Assembly (NCBI GenBank): GCA_031267375.1
Contig: JAIRZE010000023.1
Location: 1-25,585, forward strand
DNA from: Rickettsiales bacterium
GTDB lineage: Bacteria > Pseudomonadota > Alphaproteobacteria > Rs-D84
Length of the DNA: 25,585 nucleotides
Direction: 5' to 3'
Position 1 is the first letter of the stretch, and each line of letters opens with the position of its first letter. Made by a program: the position numbers and the translations under genes. The notes under the pieces are model-generated. The model worked only from the letters and a program-made list of their open reading frames with translations. It ran no database searches and had not been told where the DNA came from. This document shows positions 89-25,585 of the stretch, piece after piece.

Positions 89-1258
89 TCAATCCCTCCC
101 AATTCTGGCGGCATATTCGCGAAACTGCGATTGCTGAACATTCAGCTCTTGCCATTTTTTATTTTTATTCTTAAACTCGCCGCGCTTCATAAATCTTTGG
201 ACGCACTTGTCAACAGCCGCCTTGCCGGGCGCGCCGGATTCGTTCAGAAAATCTTTGCCGAATGTGTAAGAGGTTTTGACAGCGCTCGCAAATCCGACCA
301 ACGGCGCGTTGTATTTCTTGTTGCCGGTTCGTTTGTAATAATTAAGCGGGTTCACCATATTGGCGCAGTCGTATTCTATGACCTTTGGAATATCCGCAGA
401 ATACTGGGACTCGCAAGATAACATCATATTTGTCGCGCATTTAATTATGACGGTAATCTCTTTCGCCGACGGCGCGGCGTCCAGCATTGGATTGCCGCGC
501 AGATATTCTTTGTATTCGCCGAATCCTTTATCGTATTGAAACACTTTTGACTTGTCGTATATTATTCCGGAAAACGCGGCGGCGATATCGCCTGTTTTGC
601 GAAATACGCCGCGGATATAAAGAAGTTCCGCAATCGGGCCGACGATTTCTTCCGTTATATCCAACTCTGTAATCTGCTCTACTAAAAACCCCAGACGCAG
701 AAACGAGTGCCTGTCCAGCCAGTGCTTTAATTCGTGCGCCAGCGACAAAATGGATTCATAATTCTTGATGCGAATCTCGCGCAGCATTTCATCGCGGGAA
801 AGATGTTGCCCCAGGGCCTGATTATAAAAATTGTCGCGCGCCGCGGCGTCTTTGGATAAAGAAAAATGATAAACGGTAATGGAATCATTTTTGATGTTGT
901 AGATGCTGGAATTTTCAGCCAGATCTTTTATTTCGTTAACCTGGATTTCAACAAGATTTATATTTCCGAAAGAAATCAGCGGGATAATCTTGCGAACATC
1001 CTTGGCTTCGCCGGCATCCAGAAAATTCATAAATTCCAGATGACGGCGGACCGGAATGCTGTCGGCCGGTAATTCTGTTGATGGGCGTGAATTATTCAAA
1101 AATATGCTGTCGGCTTGATTTTCCGGGTTTTGGGCCGCAATTTTACCGCCAAATATTGTTCCGATTAAAGATGCCCCGCCCAGCAGCCATAACTTTGCTT
1201 TATTGGAATTATTTTTCAGATTTTTTTCAATCTTAAAAATCCCGGAATCTTGCGCCAT
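89..1258 (-). CDS. Membrane-anchored or secreted HExxH (gluzincin-like) protein; paralog of 14930..15898
   Basis: 389-aa ORF. It has an N-terminal hydrophobic helix (LWLLGGASLIGTIFGG). An HELKH motif is followed about 20-25 aa later by the acidic segment EEIVGPIAELL, which aligns by eye with HESKH...DEIAARASELL of the 322-aa ORF. No named family recognised. Confidence 0.6.
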   Translation of the reverse strand: MAQDSGIFKIEKNLKNNSNKAKLWLLGGASLIGTIFGGKIAAQNPENQADSIFLNNSRPSTELPADSIPVRRHLEFMNFLDAGEAKDVRKIIPLISFGNINLVEIQVNEIKDLAENSSIYNIKNDSITVYHFSLSKDAAARDNFYNQALGQHLSRDEMLREIRIKNYESILSLAHELKHWLDRHSFLRLGFLVEQITELDITEEIVGPIAELLYIRGVFRKTGDIAAAFSGIIYDKSKVFQYDKGFGEYKEYLRGNPMLDAAPSAKEITVIIKCATNMMLSCESQYSADIPKVIEYDCANMVNPLNYYKRTGNKKYNAPLVGFASAVKTSYTFGKDFLNESGAPGKAAVDKCVQRFMKRGEFKNKNKKWQELNVQQSQFREYAARIGRD

Positions 1259-2528: not shown

Positions 2529-3674
2529 TTAAGTATGCACTGTTTCATTTTTTGAATATTCCACATATTCAACTATTTCCCGCAGAGCAGCCTCTGGCCT
2601 GATTTCGCTGATTATCAATCCTTTTGCATAACCCGCGACCCTTTCCGCGGGCGCGCCCAGATCAAAGCAGGCGACCGGCAGGTTCATTTTCATAGCCTCG
2701 GCCGTGGTATATGAAAAAGTTTCCGGCCAGATGCTGGGGATGAAAACAATATCAATATCGTTTTCTTCCATTATTTTCGGCAAGTCTTCGCGCCGGTATT
2801 TTCCGACATTCTTTGTATTCGGCACCTGCATATCCGTCCCGATTAATATCAGATTTACACCACTCGGCAGCATCGCCGCCATATTGTCTATTATAGCTGA
2901 TCCTTTGTACGCATAACTTACATCGCCCAGCACCGCTATGTTTATTCCGCTGTGCGCGCCGATTTGCGCCCTGCGCAAGTGTGGCACGAAATGCGGAACG
3001 ACTTTTATTTTATCAGCCGTGAATGGATAAATTTTTGTTATAAGTTTACCGGTGCTTTGCGAAAACACTGTTATTTCATCGCAGCCGTCCCGAAAGAATT
3101 CGCCCCAAGCGCCCCGCCAGTCGCGCACATTTATCTGGGAATTCATATACGGGCAATTCTGCGCGCACGCGTCGCAAGATTCCGGCAAGCCGCAGTACTG
3201 CAAGCCCTCTGTCATCAGCATATCGCGCGGGCAAGCGCATAAAAAGCTGTGCGCGAAAAATATGACTTTGCAATCGCGGCTTCTTTTTCCCGCCGCCCAG
3301 CGTAAAATAAACCGAGTATCAGGCCAGCAGAGTACCACGCTGATCATTATTTTATTCGGACGGATATTATCAAGCAACGCAAAGAAAGAATCCGCATCAT
3401 CCCGTTCTATTCTTTTGATTACAGCGCCGCGCCAGTAAATCTCGCAAACATATTTCAAACTTATGAAATTATATTTTATACAGAACAGCAAACCGGATTT
3501 ATTATATCGCGAAATATTGTTATTGAAAAAAGCAACAGTGCCGCCGGAAAAGCCTTCGTTATCTATAAAAAAACCCTTGTCGCAGCGCAAGTCTGCCAGC
3601 GCGGATAAAAAATCCGCATCCGACAGATATTCATTCGGCATACGCACGCCGCAAAAAATATTGCGAAAAAACAT
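2529..3674 (-). CDS. Glycosyltransferase-like protein (GT-B, GT4-like C-terminal half)
   Basis: 381 aa. The C-terminal block (...DIVFIPSIWPETFSYTTAEAMKMNLPVACFDLGAPAERV) resembles the E-x7-E region of retaining GT4 enzymes. There is a Cys cluster, CGLPESCDACAQNC. Its start lies 1 nt after the lolD stop. Confidence 0.5.
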   Translation of the reverse strand: MFFRNIFCGVRMPNEYLSDADFLSALADLRCDKGFFIDNEGFSGGTVAFFNNNISRYNKSGLLFCIKYNFISLKYVCEIYWRGAVIKRIERDDADSFFALLDNIRPNKIMISVVLCWPDTRFILRWAAGKRSRDCKVIFFAHSFLCACPRDMLMTEGLQYCGLPESCDACAQNCPYMNSQINVRDWRGAWGEFFRDGCDEITVFSQSTGKLITKIYPFTADKIKVVPHFVPHLRRAQIGAHSGINIAVLGDVSYAYKGSAIIDNMAAMLPSGVNLILIGTDMQVPNTKNVGKYRREDLPKIMEENDIDIVFIPSIWPETFSYTTAEAMKMNLPVACFDLGAPAERVAGYAKGLIISEIRPEAALREIVEYVEYSKNETVHT

Positions 3675-3675
3675 A

Positions 3676-4389
3676 TTATCCCACTATGCCGTTTGTTATG
3701 GTTATGGTCCTGTCGGCGCGGGACGCCAGATTCATATCGTGCGTCACAAACAGCATCGCCATTTTGTTCTGACGGACCAAGTTCAGCAGCAGATCAAAAA
3801 CCGCGGCGGCATTCGCTGGATCAAGCGACCCCGTAGGCTCATCCGCCAGCAATACATCCGGGTCATTCGCCAAAGCGCGCGCAACCGCGGTGCGCTGCTG
3901 TTCTCCGCCGGACATCTCGCCCGGGCGGTGGGACGCCCTGTGCAGAACATTTGCGGATTTTAATAATTTCTTTGCGCGAATCTCGGCCGATTCTTCATCT
4001 GCGCCATCCGCCAGCATAGGCATAGCGACATTTTCCAGCGCGGAAAAATCGTCCAATAAATTATGCCGCTGGTATACAAAGCCGATTTTCTTGCGGCGAA
4101 CCAGAGTGCGCTGATCCTCGCTCATCTTATGCACGGGTGTGCCGGCAATCAGAATGCTGCCGCTGGTCGGCCGATCCAGCAATCCTACGCATTGCAGCAA
4201 GGTTGACTTTCCGCAACCGGACGGCCCGACCAGCGCGATGATTTCGCCGCGATGCAGATCAAATCCGCCGCCGCGCAAGATGTGCAGAGGCTGGCCGCCT
4301 TCCAGGAAAGACTTTTTAATATCGCGCACGGACATTACGACATCGCCGCCGCGCGCCGGCTTGGACAAAGAGTTTAATATTTTATTCAT
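3676..4389 (-). CDS. lolD: Lipoprotein-release ABC transporter ATPase LolD
   Basis: Walker A GPSGCGKST, signature SGGEQQR, Walker B LLADEPT, and the LolD-type motif FVYQRHNLLDDFSALENVAMP. It overlaps the upstream permease gene by 8 nt. Confidence 0.85.
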   Translation of the reverse strand: MNKILNSLSKPARGGDVVMSVRDIKKSFLEGGQPLHILRGGGFDLHRGEIIALVGPSGCGKSTLLQCVGLLDRPTSGSILIAGTPVHKMSEDQRTLVRRKKIGFVYQRHNLLDDFSALENVAMPMLADGADEESAEIRAKKLLKSANVLHRASHRPGEMSGGEQQRTAVARALANDPDVLLADEPTGSLDPANAAAVFDLLLNLVRQNKMAMLFVTHDMNLASRADRTITITNGIVG

Positions 4390-12692: not shown

Positions 12693-14456
12693 ATGAATCT
12701 GCTTGACTCATCTTTTCTGTGCTTGGATTTGGGCAGCTCTGCGGTGCGCGGGCTGGCGTGCCGCGTGCAGAACGGGCTGATAACAAAATCCGCGGCATTT
12801 TCCGCGCAAAGCTATGATACTGTTTTCGCAATAAAGTCTGTTATTGATGAACTGGAAAAGCAAATCGGAAGAAGTCTGGATCGGGCATTTATAACCGGAA
12901 ATTTCGGAAACTATGACTTTAATATCATAACGCGGACAAGCAATTGGCCCAAAGAGCACAAGATAACCCAGGGCGATATTCTGGAACAAACAACGCGGGA
13001 ACCCGCGACGGACGGCTTTGCGCCCCTGCATATAATTCCGCTGCGGTTTGATACAGCCGGCGCCAGAAATCTTGCGAATCCGGCGGGGCAAATTTCCACG
13101 GAACTGACATCCGTATTCGGCGCGATAAGCTGTGATTCCGCGCAAATGCAGAACGCGGCGGCGATTCTGCGTGCCGCGCATTTGCAGAGCGAGGGGTTTT
13201 ACGACGGCGCCTATTTGCTGAGCCAGATGACGGAAACGCCGGCGGCATTTCTGGATCTGGGCGCGGAATTTTCAAGCCTCTCCGTATGGACGAAACGCGG
13301 GCCCGTGTTTTTCAAAAAGATAAATATCGGTCAGGATGCGATAACAAATGCCATAGCGGACGAATTTGACATAAGCCGCGCGGAAGCGCTGCGGATAAAG
13401 CACAGCGCGGTCCGCACCACTATTTCGGAAATGGACAGGTTTACACCCGCGGACGCGAATTATGATTTTTCCAGGGCCGATTTGAATTCCGTCGCGCTGG
13501 AAATATTGAATGAAATAGGGAATATGGCAAAGGAAGAATTGGCGCCGTTTTTAGAAAAATACGAAATAGACAAATTGTACCTGTCCGGCGGCGGATCAGA
13601 GCTGGCGGGGTCCGCAGACTTTTTCAAAACAAAGTTGAATGCTAATATTGAAATCCTGGGCGCTGGCGCCGCGGTCTTTGCATTGAAAGAATTCGTCTGG
13701 AATGCGGAATCTTATCGCGTGAAATCCTATCTGGCGCGGCGCGCGCGTTGGAAATCCCGCATATCCGCGCTTGCGAATATATTCGCGCGCAAAAAGAAAA
13801 AACGGCGCCCGCATTTGGTGCCGATAATGCCCAGTGTCGCGTCCTTTGATATGAACGATCCCGCGACATATATTATGTTTGCGAATGCCGGGATAGGGGC
13901 GCTGCATATTGACATTATGGACGGATTTTTCGTTGACAAGATTACTGGCGGAATAGAAGAATTGAGGGCGATCCGCGCGCGGACGCGTATGCGCCTGAAT
14001 GTGCATCTGATGACGGAAAGCCCGGTGTCTTGGGCAACTGCGGCGGCAGAGGCCGGGGCGGATACTATCATAGTTTCAACCGGAACAGCCGGAGCACGGG
14101 CGGCGCTGCGGAAAATAAAGGAATTGGGAAAGCGGGCGGGAATCGCCCTGAACCCGGAATCGCCGGCGGCGATATTAAAGCCCGTATTGCGCGAAATTGA
14201 CGAAGTCCTGGTTATGTCGGTCCGTCCGGGGGCATCGGGCCAAAAGTTTATGGAAGAAGTACTGCCGAAAATATCGGCGCTTGCAAACACGCGGAAAAAA
14301 TACGGCCTGAAATATAGGATAAGTGTTGACGGCGGAATAAACGCTGAAACAGCACGGATGTGCTGGGCGGCGGGCGCGGATATGCTGGCCAGCGAAACAT
14401 ACCTGGCGCACGCGCCTGACTTTGCATTGGCGGTGGAATCGCTTCTGCCGAAATAA
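12693..14456 (+). CDS. Fusion ORF: divergent FtsA-like actin-fold protein (about aa 1-370) plus ribulose-phosphate 3-epimerase (about aa 375-587)
   Basis: N-terminal part: LCLDLGSSAVRG, FLDLGAEFSSLSVW and LYLSGGGSELAG (actin/FtsA phosphate and adenosine motifs), then a basic amphipathic tail WKSRISALANIFARKKKKRRP. C-terminal part: PSVASFD, HIDIMDGFFV, NVHLM, NPESP, VMSVRPGASGQKF, VDGGIN and AGADML (Rpe signature blocks). There is no stop between the two parts. An in-frame ATG lies at 13827. Confidence 0.75.
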   Translation: MNLLDSSFLCLDLGSSAVRGLACRVQNGLITKSAAFSAQSYDTVFAIKSVIDELEKQIGRSLDRAFITGNFGNYDFNIITRTSNWPKEHKITQGDILEQTTREPATDGFAPLHIIPLRFDTAGARNLANPAGQISTELTSVFGAISCDSAQMQNAAAILRAAHLQSEGFYDGAYLLSQMTETPAAFLDLGAEFSSLSVWTKRGPVFFKKINIGQDAITNAIADEFDISRAEALRIKHSAVRTTISEMDRFTPADANYDFSRADLNSVALEILNEIGNMAKEELAPFLEKYEIDKLYLSGGGSELAGSADFFKTKLNANIEILGAGAAVFALKEFVWNAESYRVKSYLARRARWKSRISALANIFARKKKKRRPHLVPIMPSVASFDMNDPATYIMFANAGIGALHIDIMDGFFVDKITGGIEELRAIRARTRMRLNVHLMTESPVSWATAAAEAGADTIIVSTGTAGARAALRKIKELGKRAGIALNPESPAAILKPVLREIDEVLVMSVRPGASGQKFMEEVLPKISALANTRKKYGLKYRISVDGGINAETARMCWAAGADMLASETYLAHAPDFALAVESLLPK

Positions 14457-21999: not shown

Positions 22000-23760
22000 T
22001 TATTTTTTTCTGACTTGAATATGCACTTCGCGCAGTTGCTGCTCGCTGACTTCGCGCGGGGCGCCCAACATCAAATCGCGGCCGCGCTGATCCGTCGGGA
22101 AAGCAACGACTTCGCGCAGGTTGGGTTCGCTAAGCATAATCTGCACCAGACGGTCTATTCCGAACGCGCAGCCGCCGTGCGGCGGGGCGCCGTATTGAAA
22201 CGCTGCGTACATTCCGCCGAATTTAGCCTTTACCTCTTCTTCGCCATAGCCCGCAATGGCAAACGCCGCTATCATAGTTTCCGGGTTATAGTTGCGAAGC
22301 CCGCCGCTGCAAATTTCCGCGCCGTTCAAGACCATATCAAACTGATTCGCCTTTATCGCCAGCGGATCGCCGGACAATTCTCCCTTTGGCAATGAAAACG
22401 GATTGTGCCCGAAATCAATCTTGCCTGTTTCCTCGTTCAATTCATAAAACGGAAAATCTTCCACCCAGCACAGACGAAATTCTTGCTTGTCTATCAGGCC
22501 CAGATCTTCGCCCAAACGATTGCGCAATTTTCCAGCGGCTTTTGCAGCGGTTTCCGCCTTGTCGCAAACAAAGAACAGGCTGTCGCCGTCCTGTCCGCCA
22601 ACAAGTTCTTTCAGCGCCGCGATTTGCGTTTCATTTAATTTCTTTGCAACGGGCCCCTTCGCGCCGGCCGATTCAAAGGTCAAATAAGCCAATCCGCCCA
22701 GGCCCAGCTCTTTCGTCGCATATTCGCCCAGCTTATCAAACCAGCTGCGCGGCTTGTCAATTGTCGCGGGGGCCGGAATCGCACGAACGACCGCGCCATT
22801 TTTAACCGCGTCCGCAAATACGCCGAAATCTGAATCGCGGAAAATGTGCGAGACATCGGAAATTATAATCGGATTTCGCAGGTCCGGCTTGTCGCTGCCG
22901 TATTTCAGCATAGCTTCATCAAAAGGAATATGCGGAATTTCAGATGCTATTTTTGCGTCCGGCACAAATTCGCGAATCATCGCGGGCATCAAGGAATCGC
23001 CGACGGCCTGAATATCGCGCAGGTCCACAAAAGACATTTCCAAATCCAACTGATAAAATTCCAGCAAGCGGTCAGCGCGCAAATCTTCGTCGCGGAAACA
23101 GGGCGCTATTTGAAAATAGCGGTCAAAGCCTGAAATCTGCAAAAGCTGCTTGAATTGCTGCGGCGCCTGGGGCAAAGCGTAAAACTGGCCGTGATGATGA
23201 CGCGACGGGACTATGTAATCGCGCGCGCCTTCGGGCGATGATACAGTCAGAATCGGGGTCTGGAACTCGCTGAACCCCAGGTCCCACATATGATCGCGCA
23301 GGAATTTCATAACGCGATTGCGGAATAAAATATTTTTGTGCAAGGTTTCGCGGCGCAGGTCTATATAGCGGTATTTCAGGCGCAGCTCTTCGGAAACATT
23401 GCCATCATCGCCGAAAACCTGAAACGGCAGAACATCGCTGCTGGTCAGAATTTCCCAGGATTCGCACTTTATTTCTATTCTTCCGGTCGGAATTTTGTCG
23501 TTGACGGCCGACGCATCGCGAGCAACGACGGAACCGCGAACGCTGATGACAGATTCGGGGTGAATTTTTTCAAGGCCGGCATCGCCGCCGTCCAGAACGA
23601 TCTGGGTCAGTCCGTAATTATCGCGCAGGTCAATGAATAAAAGCTGGCCGTGATCGCGCTTGCGATGAACCCAGCCGGATAGGATTACGGATTCGCCGAC
23701 ATTGGCGGCGGAAAGTTCGCCGCAGGTATGAGTGCGATATTTGGATTTTAACGAGAGCAT
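22000..23760 (-). CDS. aspS: Aspartate--tRNA ligase, bacterial type
   Basis: Start reassigned to MLSLKSKYRTHTCGELS (RBS AAGGTG). 586 aa. LLFIDLRDNYG, QSPQQFKQLL, FRDEDLRADR and the GAD insertion are present, with the C-terminal GGCAFGIDRLV. The upstream 40 codons of the ORF-track entry overlap the T-box leader. Confidence 0.9.
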   Translation of the reverse strand: MLSLKSKYRTHTCGELSAANVGESVILSGWVHRKRDHGQLLFIDLRDNYGLTQIVLDGGDAGLEKIHPESVISVRGSVVARDASAVNDKIPTGRIEIKCESWEILTSSDVLPFQVFGDDGNVSEELRLKYRYIDLRRETLHKNILFRNRVMKFLRDHMWDLGFSEFQTPILTVSSPEGARDYIVPSRHHHGQFYALPQAPQQFKQLLQISGFDRYFQIAPCFRDEDLRADRLLEFYQLDLEMSFVDLRDIQAVGDSLMPAMIREFVPDAKIASEIPHIPFDEAMLKYGSDKPDLRNPIIISDVSHIFRDSDFGVFADAVKNGAVVRAIPAPATIDKPRSWFDKLGEYATKELGLGGLAYLTFESAGAKGPVAKKLNETQIAALKELVGGQDGDSLFFVCDKAETAAKAAGKLRNRLGEDLGLIDKQEFRLCWVEDFPFYELNEETGKIDFGHNPFSLPKGELSGDPLAIKANQFDMVLNGAEICSGGLRNYNPETMIAAFAIAGYGEEEVKAKFGGMYAAFQYGAPPHGGCAFGIDRLVQIMLSEPNLREVVAFPTDQRGRDLMLGAPREVSEQQLREVHIQVRKK

Positions 23761-23886
23761 TTTGACACCTTTTTTTGTAATTTTTGATTTACGCAGGGGC
23801 GCAGAATTCCGCGCGGTGCCACCCTGATTTATAACTTTTGCCATCGGGCTTGCCTGCTCTTCGTTTGTCGGACGCATCATTGCAGG
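23761..23886 (-). promoter_or_regulatory. Compact T-box leader, specifier GAC (Asp)
   Basis: Minus strand: AGGGUGGCACCGCG matches the T-box consensus 14/14. The antiterminator-type fold is CAGGG-[UGGCACC]-GCGCGG-AAUU-CUGCGC-CCCUG (23794-23826). The Stem I-like hairpin is CCUGC-AAUGAUG-CGU-[CCGACAA]-ACG-AAGA-GCAGG (23853-23886), with K-turn-type GA pairs and GAC at 23867-23869. Confidence 0.75.
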
Positions 23887-23950
23887 TTCACAGCTTTTCG
23901 GCTTAACAGAACAGATTTTTGCACAGGTTTAGTAAAAAATCAATAAAAAC

Positions 23951-23978
23951 TTGAAAAAACAAAATATATAGTTATAAT
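23951..23978 (+). promoter_or_regulatory. Promoter TTGAAA-16nt-TATAAT for the + strand T-box leader
   Basis: -35 at 23951-23956 and -10 at 23973-23978. The predicted TSS is near 23985, 3 nt before the first leader hairpin. Confidence 0.6.
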
Positions 23979-23984
23979 AAAAAT

Positions 23985-24253
23985 CAACAGCGATAATCTA
24001 CTAACAATAGGGAGCTGGAAGAAGAACAGCCGCGTCTTGTTGGCAAAGCTTATTAGAACTTCCCGGGAACGCCCGTCATAGCGGAAGTCTCTTTAATGTT
24101 CAGGCGAGCAGCGAGAGATAAAAAGGCTTGCGCAGCGATGCGCGGGCAAAGCAAGGTGGCACCGCGCCACGCAAAGTGCATTTTTTATGCGCGATATGCG
24201 TTGCGTCCTTGTGTTCTTACTGCAATTAAGCATACAACACAAAGGAGCGCATT
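23985..24253 (+). promoter_or_regulatory. T-box leader, probable specifier AAC (Asn), SD-sequestering type
   Basis: AAGGUGGCACCGCG matches the consensus 13/14. The fold is CAAGG(24152-56)-[UGGCACC]-GCGC..GCGU-CCUUG(24207-11). The first hairpin is CAGC-GAUAA-UCUA-[CUAACAA]-UAGG-GA-GCUG (23988-24017), with AAC at 24003-24005. UCCUUGUGUU (24206-15) is complementary to AACACAAAGGA (24236-46), which contains the SD. Confidence 0.7.
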
Positions 24254-25585
24254 ATGAAACAAGTAAGAACGCATATCGCCGAACTTTCACAATTGAAGAC
24301 TGGCGATGAAATAACAATCGCTGGACACGCACAAATCGTGCGCGCCCAGTCATCTGTCGCGTTTATAATTTTACGCGACATAACCGGCAGCATTCAATGC
24401 GTAATCGGCAAAGAGCATCCGCAGTTTGCGGAGGCGGCCGAACTTACGACTGAATCCGTGCTGAAAATAAGCGGTAAAATTGCCGAAGCAAAAATAACGC
24501 CCAGCACGCCGTTCGGAATGGAAATTCAAATAGAATCGTTCTGCGTGCTGTCCCGGGCCGAACCTTTGCCGATACCGGTTGTTGAAAAAGGCGGCGCGGA
24601 AGTGTCGGATGAAAAACGGCAAGACTGGCGGTACCTTGTCCTGCGGCGAGAGCGCGACGCAACGATTATGAAGGCGCTTTCCGCATTGAACCACGGCTAT
24701 CACGAATTCTTGATCTCGGAAGGCTTTTTGGAAATTCATACTCCAAAGCTTATGGGCTCTGCAAGCGAGGCGCATCTGAAATTATTTCATCTGGATTATT
24801 TCGGCGGCACGGCTTATTTGGCGCAATCGCCCCAATTATTCAAACAGATGGCGATTGCATCCGGTTTGGAAAGAGTGTTTGAAGTTGGCCCGGTTTTCCG
24901 CGCGAACCCTGCATTCACCACGCGGCATCATACTGAATACACCAGCTATGACATAGAAATGGGATACATTGAAAGCTTTGACGAAGTTATGGAAGTATTG
25001 GAAAAAACAGTTGCTTATATTTTGACCAGCATAAAAAAATCTGTTGGAAAAGATATAAAAAAGCATTTCGGGATTTCTGATTTCCAATTGAAAAAGCCTA
25101 TTCCCAGAATCACGATGCACCAGGCGAAAAAGATTTTGCGCGAGCGCGGGATAGTTTCCGCCAAAGCAGACCTTTCCACCGAAGAAGAAAAAGCTATCGG
25201 AGAATATGTAAAAGAAGAACTGGACAGCGATTTTGTGTTCATTACGGAATTTCCGTGGGAATCGCGGCCATTCTATCACAAGAAAGGTGTGTCGTCGGAT
25301 ACCGGCGAACCGATTTCCGTCAGCGCGGACTTGATTTACAAGGGGCTTGAACTCACGACATTGGCACAGCGCGAGGAAGACTATAAGACATTGTGCGCCC
25401 AAGTTGCGGAAAAAGACCTTAAACAAGAAGGACTGCAATGGTATCTGGATTGTTTCAGATTTGGAATGCCGCCGCACGGAGGATTCGGAATGGGTGGCGG
25501 CCGTCTGGTAAAGCAATTGCTGGATCTGCCGACGGTGCGCGATTCGGACTTTTTGTACCGCGGACCGAACAGAATGATACCATAA
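24254..25585 (+). CDS. aspS: Aspartate--tRNA ligase, archaeal/eukaryotic type (candidate non-discriminating AspRS2)
   Basis: 443 aa, complete. N-terminal OB fold, YLAQSPQLFKQM, GPVFRA, and a C-terminal GMPPHGGFGMGGGRLV...RGPNRMIP. The short class IIb architecture lacks the bacterial GAD insertion. Confidence 0.85.
   Translation: MKQVRTHIAELSQLKTGDEITIAGHAQIVRAQSSVAFIILRDITGSIQCVIGKEHPQFAEAAELTTESVLKISGKIAEAKITPSTPFGMEIQIESFCVLSRAEPLPIPVVEKGGAEVSDEKRQDWRYLVLRRERDATIMKALSALNHGYHEFLISEGFLEIHTPKLMGSASEAHLKLFHLDYFGGTAYLAQSPQLFKQMAIASGLERVFEVGPVFRANPAFTTRHHTEYTSYDIEMGYIESFDEVMEVLEKTVAYILTSIKKSVGKDIKKHFGISDFQLKKPIPRITMHQAKKILRERGIVSAKADLSTEEEKAIGEYVKEELDSDFVFITEFPWESRPFYHKKGVSSDTGEPISVSADLIYKGLELTTLAQREEDYKTLCAQVAEKDLKQEGLQWYLDCFRFGMPPHGGFGMGGGRLVKQLLDLPTVRDSDFLYRGPNRMIP

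Follow-up and report, generated by a model that had tools for sequence, protein, structure and literature searches.

Back-to-back reduced T-box leaders with Asn and Asp specifiers between two aspartyl-tRNA synthetase genes of an uncultured alphaproteobacterium

What controls two aspartyl-tRNA synthetase (AspRS) genes that are read away from each other out of a single short spacer, and do both respond to the same tRNA? The question is raised by contig JAIRZE010000023.1 of an uncultured alphaproteobacterium (assembly GCA_031267375.1), of which we analysed positions 1 to 25,585 (hereafter the window). Here a spacer of 493 bp (23761-24253) separates two divergent genes, aspS1 on the minus strand, encoding a bacterial-type AspRS of 586 aa, and aspS2 on the plus strand, encoding an archaeal-type AspRS of 443 aa. 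Our reading, which we hold with good probability, is that the spacer contains two divergent, reduced riboswitches of the T-box class which control translation, the plus one reading tRNA-Asn and the minus one tRNA-Asp. Related loci are referred to by L numbers, and the coordinates of all features are collected in Table 1.

T-box elements on both strands of the spacer

An earlier note, made from the DNA letters alone, had placed a T-box consensus on each strand of the spacer; both are present, as AAGGUGGCACCGCG on the plus strand, where GGTGGCACCGCG begins at 24155, and as AGGGUGGCACCGCG on the minus strand, starting at 23823 and reading downward. The succession of helix A1, a 7-nt UGGCACC bulge, helix A2 and the return of A1 described in that note was found in place on both strands, and so were the parallel hairpins at the head of the leaders, with the loops CCGACAA (minus) and CUAACAA (plus). 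The UGGN-ACC core of the T-box is invariant in more than 60 relatives, and the A1 and A2 helices covary. Of the 45 alphaproteobacterial aspS2 loci, 43 have the core approximately 100 nt before the gene, in a leader that is alignable over its whole length.

When the plus fold was imposed on 27 distinct leaders, 96.7% of the cells were paired and 23 of the 49 pairs showed compensatory changes, with none of 500 shuffles as good and about 40% of cells paired in slid controls. The minus fold, imposed on 15 leaders in an alignment of ~100 nt, gave 91% paired cells and compensatory changes in 12 of 20 pairs and was matched by 0 of 500 shuffles; RNAalifold independently returned the same two-domain fold, with no helix in the linker. 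On this comparison of sequences, both leaders are confirmed as real T-box RNAs, to an extent far beyond chance. The layout is not the textbook one that had been claimed for it: both leaders lack the distal Stem I platform, i.e. the interdigitated T-loops which stack on the tRNA elbow, both score below the Rfam threshold, and the minus leader is also devoid of Stem II, Stem IIA/B and Stem III.

Architecture of the aspS2 leader

Judged by the alignment, the plus leader is a complete T-box with a reduced Stem I, every canonical element of which, the pseudoknot included, is backed by covariation. Its Stem I measures 28 nt, with a 3-bp base helix, a 4-bp helix and a 7-nt loop shaped like an anticodon loop. 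Two of the three base-helix pairs and all four upper pairs showed compensatory changes (alignment A2), and the CUAACAA loop is unchanged across the plus leaders apart from L004 and L013. The internal loop carries the sequence-level signature of a kink-turn (K-turn), here as the variant GAU-AA opposite GA, where the relatives have GAU-GA. The apex of Stem II in the window copy departs from the consensus, and within the pseudoknot IIA is invariant and IIB (alignment columns 85-87 with 98-100) is compensatory in two of three pairs. Between the pseudoknot and Stem III stands an additional hairpin that is not an element of the canonical T-box: its outer pair changes from U-A to A-U in six sequences, its inner helix covaries, CUCUUU and GCGAGAG are invariant, and L158 and L162 possess a hairpin at the equivalent place. 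In the T-box helix, A2 carries a 35-nt insertion and its pair 191-240 covaries; A1 is invariant in the aspS2 group.

The two leaders had also been thought to share one divergent promoter region. For the plus leader a good sigma-70 promoter was found, and relatives have TATAAT at an equal distance upstream of Stem I; for the minus leader the promoter is a candidate only, and at the equivalent place the relatives show clear TTGCAA-17-TATAAA promoters.

Architecture and distribution of the aspS1 leader

The minus sensor comprises approximately 95 nt in total and consists of Stem I, a purine-rich linker and the T-box helix only, which is to our knowledge the smallest natural T-box layout. Across 15 leaders, Stem I of this mini type has a base helix of 5-8 bp, an upper helix of 3-4 bp and a loop reading C/U-U/C-[G/A]AC-A-A; its K-turn signature, again at the level of sequence, is a 3-nt bulge followed by an invariant GA opposite an invariant GA, and the flanking helices covary. 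All five base-helix pairs of the minus Stem I and two inner pairs are compensatory in these 15 leaders, as are four of six pairs in A1 and one of four in A2 of the T-box helix. No helix corresponding to Stem II, Stem IIA/B or Stem III was predicted, or found to covary, in the linker (alignment columns 43-65). The purine string in the linker of mini leaders reads AAAGUNAUAAA, and that of the window, AAAAGUUAUAAAU, is similar to the sequences on either side of Stem III in the consensus of RF00230.

Besides that of the window, 19 distinct orthologous leaders, 12 mini-type ones being found first, keep the minus type; 13 loci came from a metagenome scan, two copies from the first scan and four from look-ups. 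In the metagenome scan with the 586-aa protein, a T-box was found upstream of 13/13 orthologues at ≥64% identity and upstream of no aspS1 homologue at ≤59% identity. A covariance model (R1) built from 15 minus-type leaders recovered four held-out leaders at full length with 65-75 bits; searched with it to E values of 1, 67 aspS loci from other, more distantly related bacteria yielded no match. L084 carries a full-length leader on an orthologous bacterial-type aspS, and L160 is an intermediate in which only Stem I and Stem II are kept; since such intermediates exist, the mini leader likely arose by reduction of the long form.

Specifiers and cognate tRNAs

The triplets GAC (Asp) and AAC (Asn), which the earlier note had named as the specifiers of the minus and plus leaders, are upheld by the covariation of both folds, including compensatory changes in both Stem I hairpins of related genomes, and by the toggling of the first triplet base alone. 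None of the 45 alphaproteobacterial aspS2 leaders departs from AAC. Distant aspS2 homologues with the same kind of loop have AAC (L158 and L162) or GAC (L160 and L163). In the aspS1 leaders (n=20) the first base of the triplet is the only loop position that varies, giving GAC in 13 lineages, the window included, and AAC in seven. On a neighbour-joining tree of the AspRS1 proteins these two states are interleaved, a distribution which implies at least three to four independent switches between G and A. Other readings of the loop, namely CUA, UAA, ACA and CAA, were considered and discarded: only the first base of (G/A)AC varies, and both variants name a tRNA that is a substrate of AspRS.

Both genes are visible in four genomes (the window, L007, L042 and L089), and in all four the aspS1 leader has GAC and the aspS2 leader AAC. 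The seven lineages with AAC before their bacterial-type aspS suggest that tRNA-Asn is charged by this enzyme too in parts of the clade. A simple rule, by which aspS1 would have AAC only where aspS2 is absent, meets a counter-case in L167, where aspS2 is truncated and the aspS1 leader still has GAC. L167 (1-1200, GCA_031259745.1) is a third back-to-back locus, in which the long-form Asn leader is intact; its aspS2 breaks off after ~74 residues, and downstream of it come one half of a tRNA-Thr(GGU)-like sequence and a gene with a T5orf172 domain.

The tRNA genes of the clade were chance finds in related loci. Those for tRNA-Asn (L002, L033 and L034) have the anticodon GUU, complementary to AAC, in a CUGUUAA loop, G73 and a U1-A72 pair, and those for tRNA-Asp have the anticodon GUC, complementary to GAC, in a CUGUCAC loop, G73 and a G1-C72 pair. 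As both tRNAs have G73, the UGGC of the bulge suits either of them, in line with what the earlier note had expected. The U1-A72 pair of tRNA-Asn is the 1-72 pair used by GatCAB (PMC4206432).

Predicted output of the leaders

The T-box helices had been described as antiterminators, a role that the surrounding sequence does not bear out: a hairpin with a U-run was found after the T-box on neither strand, and the alternative structures occlude the Shine-Dalgarno (SD) sequence instead. In the plus leader, the minimum free energy (MFE) fold is the sequestrator form with the SD occluded, the predicted core of the pairing being CCUUGUGUU opposite AACAC-AAGG. The partition function pairs the SD core with the 3′ strand of the T-box at P ~0.8, and 98% of the sequestrator cells are paired in 27 leaders. 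Enforcing the T-box helix with its bulge left free raised the accessibility of the SD in 12 of 13 plus-type leaders, as scored on the G-rich core of the SD, a fixed 9-nt window being blurred by poly-A.

In the MFE folds of the minus leader, the SD GGUGUC (23769-23764) pairs with GGCACC of the T-box bulge, with P=1.0 to the T-box 5′ strand in the free ensemble. Eight leaders are of this direct type; all have GGUGYY, and for six of them the models give a P of 0.8-1.0 for pairing of the SD to the T-box 5′ strand. The duplex of the SD with the T-box 12-mer has an energy of -11.3 kcal/mol in the window and -10.5 to -14.1 kcal/mol in 8/8 direct-type leaders, compared with means of -3.9 kcal/mol for aspS2 leaders, -6.2 kcal/mol for other genes of the window and -3.1 kcal/mol for shuffles, 0.4% of which reach -9 kcal/mol or lower. 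Twelve relatives have a relay instead, in which GGUGCC, the complement of the bulge, is followed by a GGCACC-like complement of the SD; the partners in the relay hairpin co-vary, CGGGCCC occurring with GGGACCG and UUGGUGCCC with GGGACCAA. The type of SD follows that of the platform, with GGUGYY in leaders having mini or CAGGG-type helices and GGAGG in those of the long type. Since there is no terminator and the alternative structures occlude the SD, control is most likely translational, and for both leaders we regard this as fairly probable on the modelled folds; the more specific competition between bulge and SD in the minus leader has, by the same modelling, about an even chance of being right.

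Classical transcription attenuation, as in Bacillus, with an antiterminator set against an intrinsic terminator and control by read-through, appears unlikely here. The geometry of the T-box helix is canonical, a scan flagged a terminator-like hairpin (24189-24206) followed by CCTTGTGTTC on the plus strand, the tract CCUUGUGUUCUUA is conserved, and the distant homologue L163 has a convincing hairpin with UUUUAUUU after its T-box. The flagged hairpin, however, lies within the A2 insertion and so belongs to the T-box helix itself instead of competing with it, and its U-tract is poor; we rejected it as a terminator. The minus T-box has nothing of the kind behind it, and the strand that the off state releases is complementary to the SD in both leaders.

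Three further observations were made on these regions. No SD can be recognised for most predicted genes of the window, and the SDs of the two aspS genes, AAAGGAG and AAAGGUG, are strong and rich in purines. The aspS1 leaders of L007, L085 and L088 contain an extra GC-rich hairpin, UUCCCC...GGGGAA, between the relay hairpin and the SD. L089, which otherwise has the back-to-back arrangement of the window, carries in the sequestrator loop of its aspS2 leader (~700-890, minus strand) an insertion of ~170 nt with the inverted repeat GCCGACAUAAGAAAUU / AAUUUCUUAUGUCGGC at its ends, possibly a small mobile element, possibly a long hairpin.

Proposed mechanism

Folds, conservation, the positions and toggling of the specifiers, the absence of terminators and thermodynamic plausibility were computed directly; tRNA binding, translational output, competition between bulge and SD, and non-discriminating (ND) activity of the second enzyme are what we infer in the following scheme. 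The plus leader (~270 nt) would read tRNA-Asn with the AAC of its apical loop, having Stem II, Stem IIA/B and Stem III as backing. In its on state, the 3′ end of uncharged tRNA would pair with UGGC of the bulge and stabilise A1; in the off state, the T-box 3′ strand UCCUUGUGUU would pair with AACAC-AAAGGA and hide the SD of aspS2. The minus leader would read tRNA-Asp with GAC in the same kind of loop, and its off state would be formed by direct pairing of the bulge GGCACC with the aspS1 SD GGUGUC, so that the ribosome-binding site would have the 3′ end of uncharged tRNA as its rival for one set of six bases. The net effect would be that each AspRS is translated more when its own tRNA is undercharged, and the supply of Asp-tRNA(Asp) would thereby be separated from that of Asp-tRNA(Asn) for the transamidation route.

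Several points weigh against this reading. A permissive search of the spacer alone with RF00230, a check that the earlier note had proposed for both strands, succeeded in part: the T-box helix was aligned on both, with the plus leader matching the whole model at 30.3 bits (E=7.6e-5), 78 distal Stem I positions being replaced by 7 nt, and the minus leader matching in the T-box helix only (model positions 183-216) at 22.9 bits (E=0.006), but the gathering threshold of 93 bits was reached on neither strand. Rfam at threshold returned tRNAs only, and no T-box, from the window and 12 related loci. With these scores below the database criterion, the T-box identity rests on the comparative evidence given above. 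The plus sequestrator shows no covariation, on which the alignment is silent because both strands are invariant. Among the direct-type leaders, L090 and L165 have an SD that is predicted to pair elsewhere; with the T-box 12-mer, four of 18 unrelated upstream regions of the window also attain energies of -10 kcal/mol or below; and in the mini type, enforcing the T-box helix raised the modelled SD accessibility in only 14 of 21 leaders, with mixed results for the relay models. A GAC specifier could also pair with a GUU anticodon through G.U, which makes the discrimination of Asp from Asn by the mini leader uncertain, and a leader without both Stem II and the elbow platform may need some further element.

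It is improbable, in our estimate, that the mini leader is a decayed full T-box which no longer senses tRNA, leaving aspS1 constitutive or otherwise controlled. The leader does lack Stem II, Stem IIA/B, Stem III and the elbow platform, for truncated Stem I without Stem II the binding of tRNA is reported as barely detectable (PMC7583486), and the full-length leader on the orthologous aspS1 of L084 indicates that reduction did occur. Yet 19 distinct lineages, with protein identity as low as 64%, retain the mini layout; both of its helices show compensatory changes, and neither the loop nor the bulge varies; its specifier base toggles only between two meaningful codons; and the complementarity of the SD to the bulge, direct or through a relay, is maintained, as is not expected of a relic. 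Very improbable indeed is an autoregulation like that of E. coli thrS, with Stem I hairpins acting as anticodon-arm mimics bound by the synthetase itself and no tRNA being read: the 7-nt loop resembles an anticodon loop in its pyrimidine at position 2 and the purines after the triplet, but it holds the codon GAC or AAC and not the anticodon GUC or GUU, its central base is A, AspRS identity needs U35 of tRNA-Asp, and an invariant UGGC bulge matched to G73-CCA would be left unexplained.

Possible origin of the aspS1 leader

Returning to two translation-controlling T-boxes as the preferred reading, we advance a more tentative proposal for the aspS1 leader, to which we give somewhat less than an even chance. 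It would be a natural two-contact T-box of ~95 nt, in which a K-turn hairpin presents the specifier in a kissing loop like that of an anticodon and the bulge doubles as an anti-SD, either directly, as in the window, or through the GGUGCC/GGCACC relay hairpin of the relatives, with no elbow platform, Stem II, pseudoknot or Stem III, and it would have arisen in Alphaproteobacteria by reduction of a horizontally acquired aspS2 T-box. If true, such a leader would be a minimal natural solution for sensing the charging of tRNA.

Distant lineages also pair a T-box of ultrashort Stem I with an archaeal-type aspS, among them L163, which has a true terminator. The sharing of both gene and leader suggests, at the level of sequence comparison, that the two moved together into the clade and that the leader was then copied onto aspS1 and trimmed. 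The nearest non-alphaproteobacterial loci in the genome scan, L046 and L047 of Bacillota (38% identity), have no T-box, so the donor lineage is not identified by them.

Comparison with known T-box systems

In published surveys, the only proteobacterial T-boxes are those of leuA in Geobacter and Pelobacter (PMC2494555), and the search for the translational class in TBDB was confined to Actinobacteria (PMC7778990). A full-text literature search found no prior description of T-box riboswitches in Alphaproteobacteria, and in the literature searched we likewise found none of a leader missing the elbow platform, Stem II, the pseudoknot and Stem III together, nor of an SD pairing with the tRNA-binding bulge. 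The second of these, the leader missing all four elements, is in conflict with the very weak tRNA binding reported for a truncated Stem I in the absence of Stem II (PMC7583486).

According to a review, translational T-boxes are recognised by a specifier in the apical loop, by a short Stem I that lacks the elbow platform and by insertions in A2 (PMC7583486). The plus leader is closest in form to the actinobacterial ileS element (M. smegmatis and M. tuberculosis; Sherwood, Grundy & Henkin 2015; 6UFG/6UFM), with which it shares the apical specifier, the short Stem I without platform, Stem II, Stem IIA/B, Stem III, the A2 insertion and an output by SD sequestration (PMC7583486), the last being predicted for the plus leader. 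The leaders described here differ in reading Asn and Asp instead of Ile, in preceding aspS instead of ileS, and in belonging to Alphaproteobacteria instead of Actinobacteria; the plus leader has the extra conserved hairpin between IIA/B and Stem III, and the minus leader is without Stem II, IIA/B and Stem III, its SD apparently pairing with the 5′ (bulge) strand. The pairing partner of the SD in the actinobacterial model is the 3′ strand.

The use of an Asn-reading T-box on an additional AspRS for the tRNA-dependent route to Asn has a precedent in aspS2-gatCAB of Clostridium acetobutylicum, as the earlier note had indicated, going by the titles of Saad et al. (2012 JBC; 2013 PNAS, 'two-codon T-box') as cited in PMC4206432; one of the three aspS genes of that species was also reported as T-box regulated (Wels 2008). 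In contrast to that system, aspS2 here is apparently monocistronic, Stem I is ultrashort, a terminator is absent, and a second, Asp-reading T-box stands back to back on the housekeeping aspS. The clostridial element is reportedly a long, transcription-terminating Firmicute T-box before an operon that includes gatCAB. The plus leader is thus of known architecture and new in specificity, gene and phylum, with a C. acetobutylicum precedent for the idea of an Asn T-box on an extra AspRS.

For the mini leader, the nearest comparison is the glyQS T-box of Bacillus and Geobacillus, the smallest well-studied natural one, in which Stem II and IIA/B are likewise dispensable and a Stem I decoder is joined to the discriminator through a linker (PMC7583486). 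The glyQS element keeps a long Stem I with elbow platform and Stem III and terminates transcription, whereas the mini leader has neither platform nor Stem III, so that contacts with the anticodon and the 3′ end are the only ones left to it.

The two enzymes and non-discriminating activity

The assignment of bacterial-type and archaeal-type AspRS to the two flanks of the spacer was borne out by matches to NF001750 and NF003483 (Table 1). The 443-aa protein, whose NCBIfam and NCBI product name is aspartate--tRNA(Asn) ligase, has an OB-fold anticodon domain and a class II core with no GAD insertion, as is typical of the archaeal type, and aligns end to end with the AspRS of T. kodakarensis (1b8a/3nel) and ND-AspRS2 of T. 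thermophilus (1n9w); its score against TIGR00458, 334.5, is just under the cutoff of 368.4. In place of K85 of 1b8a there is Pro, shared with 1n9w, and in place of W26 there is Gln, where 1n9w has His. The changes K85P and W26H are each said, in work attributed to Feng et al. 2003, to relax the discrimination of AspRS. Together with the NCBIfam name and the U1-A72 pair of the clade tRNA-Asn, the Pro residue is an indirect hint which makes ND activity of this enzyme plausible. No gatCAB, asnS or asnB gene occurs among the genes of the 25,585-nt window.

The combination of a bacterial-type AspRS with an acquired archaeal-type AspRS in one bacterium is shared with T. thermophilus and D. radiodurans; we know of no T-box control of the AspRS pair in those species. 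Their second AspRS makes Asp-tRNA(Asn) for GatCAB (PMC4206432).

Gene context and host

A protein identical to the 443-aa AspRS2 is on deposit from a metagenome-assembled genome (MAG) named 'Rickettsiales bacterium'. The 45 loci found with this protein in genomes (61-85% identity) are all of uncultured Alphaproteobacteria, under the names 'Rickettsiales bacterium' and 'Candidatus Enterousia' and from rumen, gut and termite MAGs. LolCDE, UvrB and TsaE are among the other products of the window, which is consistent with a Gram-negative chromosome. That aspS2 appears monocistronic is taken from L007, where the next gene is on the opposite strand.

The list of open reading frames (ORFs) extends aspS1 to 626 aa (22000-23880, minus strand), with an AUG at 23880 inside Stem I of the minus leader, and an automatic gene call from this AUG would hide the riboswitch; the start at 23760 is backed by the alignment of homologues and by the SD. 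A tRNA-Thr(GGU) gene is located just upstream of the aspS1 leader in L079-L083, L086, L087, L168, L172, L007 and L042, a conserved synteny that is absent from the window. L158, a human-gut contig, has two paralogues of class II Asp/Asn/Lys-type synthetases (467-1801 and 3001-4311) 1.2 kb apart, with a T-box leader on the second only.

Elsewhere in the window, a single ORF of 587 aa (12693-14456, plus strand) joins an FtsA/PilM-like part (residues 43-332) to a ribulose-phosphate 3-epimerase (residues 378-584), and is either an unusual fusion or two in-frame genes without an intervening stop. Ordinary genes for tRNA-Gly(UCC) (1581-1654) and tRNA-Tyr(GUA) (1740-1825) are found on the minus strand.

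Table 1. Positions of the two aspS genes and of the elements of their leaders in the window
Feature	Positions	Strand	Details
aspS1	22000..23760	-	Bacterial-type AspRS, 586 aa, with GAD domain; NF001750 750 bits; Pfam PF01336, PF02938, PF00152
Shine-Dalgarno GGUGUC (aspS1)	23764..23769	-	Predicted to be sequestered by GGCACC of the T-box bulge, its complement
T-box helix (aspS1)	23794..23826	-	A1 CAGGG/CCCUG (23826-23822 / 23798-23794), bulge UGGCACC 23821-23815, A2 GCGC/GCGC (23814-23811 / 23802-23799), loop GGAAUUCU
Linker (aspS1)	23827..23852	-	26 nt, single-stranded, ends in conserved purine string AAAAGUUAUAAAU
Ultrashort Stem I (aspS1)	23853..23886	-	34 nt; base helix CCUGC/GCAGG, 3-nt bulge AAU and tandem GA/GA, short helix, apical loop CCGACAA 23871-23865
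Specifier GAC (Asp)	23867..23869	-	Same loop positions as AAC in the plus leader; followed by A
Candidate promoter of aspS1 leader	23915..23943	-	TTGATT 23943-23938, 17 nt, AAAAAT 23920-23915; back to back with the plus promoter; weak, below scan threshold
Promoter of aspS2 leader	23951..23978	+	TTGAAA-16 nt-TATAAT; 11/12 consensus matches in scan
Ultrashort Stem I (aspS2)	23989..24016	+	Base helix 23989-23991/24014-24016, GA-type (K-turn-like) internal loop, helix 23997-24000/24008-24011, apical loop CUAACAA 24001-24007
Specifier AAC (Asn)	24003..24005	+	Loop positions 3-5 of 7; followed by A24006
Stem II	24017..24063	+	Conserved purine strings GAAGAAGAAC and UUAUUAGAAC; lower and upper helices covary
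Stem IIA/B pseudoknot	24064..24084	+	CGGG-AACG-CCCG; loop pairs with downstream GCG
Extra hairpin between IIA/B and Stem III	24088..24118	+	UCUCU...AGAGA with inner helix
Stem III	24126..24147	+	7/8 pairs compensatory; aligns to RF00230 Stem III
T-box helix, antisequestrator (aspS2)	24152..24211	+	A1 CAAGG/CCUUG (24152-24156 / 24207-24211), bulge UGGCACC 24157-24163, A2 24164-24167/24203-24206
Predicted sequestrator (aspS2)	24206..24247	+	UCCUUGUGUU (24206-24215) with AACAC-AAAGGA (24236-24246), over SD AAAGGAG (24241-24247)
aspS2	24254..25585	+	Archaeal-type AspRS, 443 aa, without GAD domain; NF003483 423 bits (cutoff 353); Pfam PF01336 and PF00152 only

Discussion

T-boxes are regarded as a device of Gram-positive bacteria. 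A clade of gut, rumen and termite Alphaproteobacteria whose T-boxes are missed by Rfam-based annotation implies that the range of the family has been underestimated. The mini leader of aspS1 puts to the test a current structural claim, by which the tRNA cannot be held by a short Stem I unless Stem II assists, and would offer a very small natural scaffold for engineered translation switches that respond to tRNA. The Asp/Asn pair of switches, together with the repeated flips between GAC and AAC, would be an evolutionary read-out of how one enzymatic activity is split over two tRNA pools in bacteria that make Asn on tRNA.

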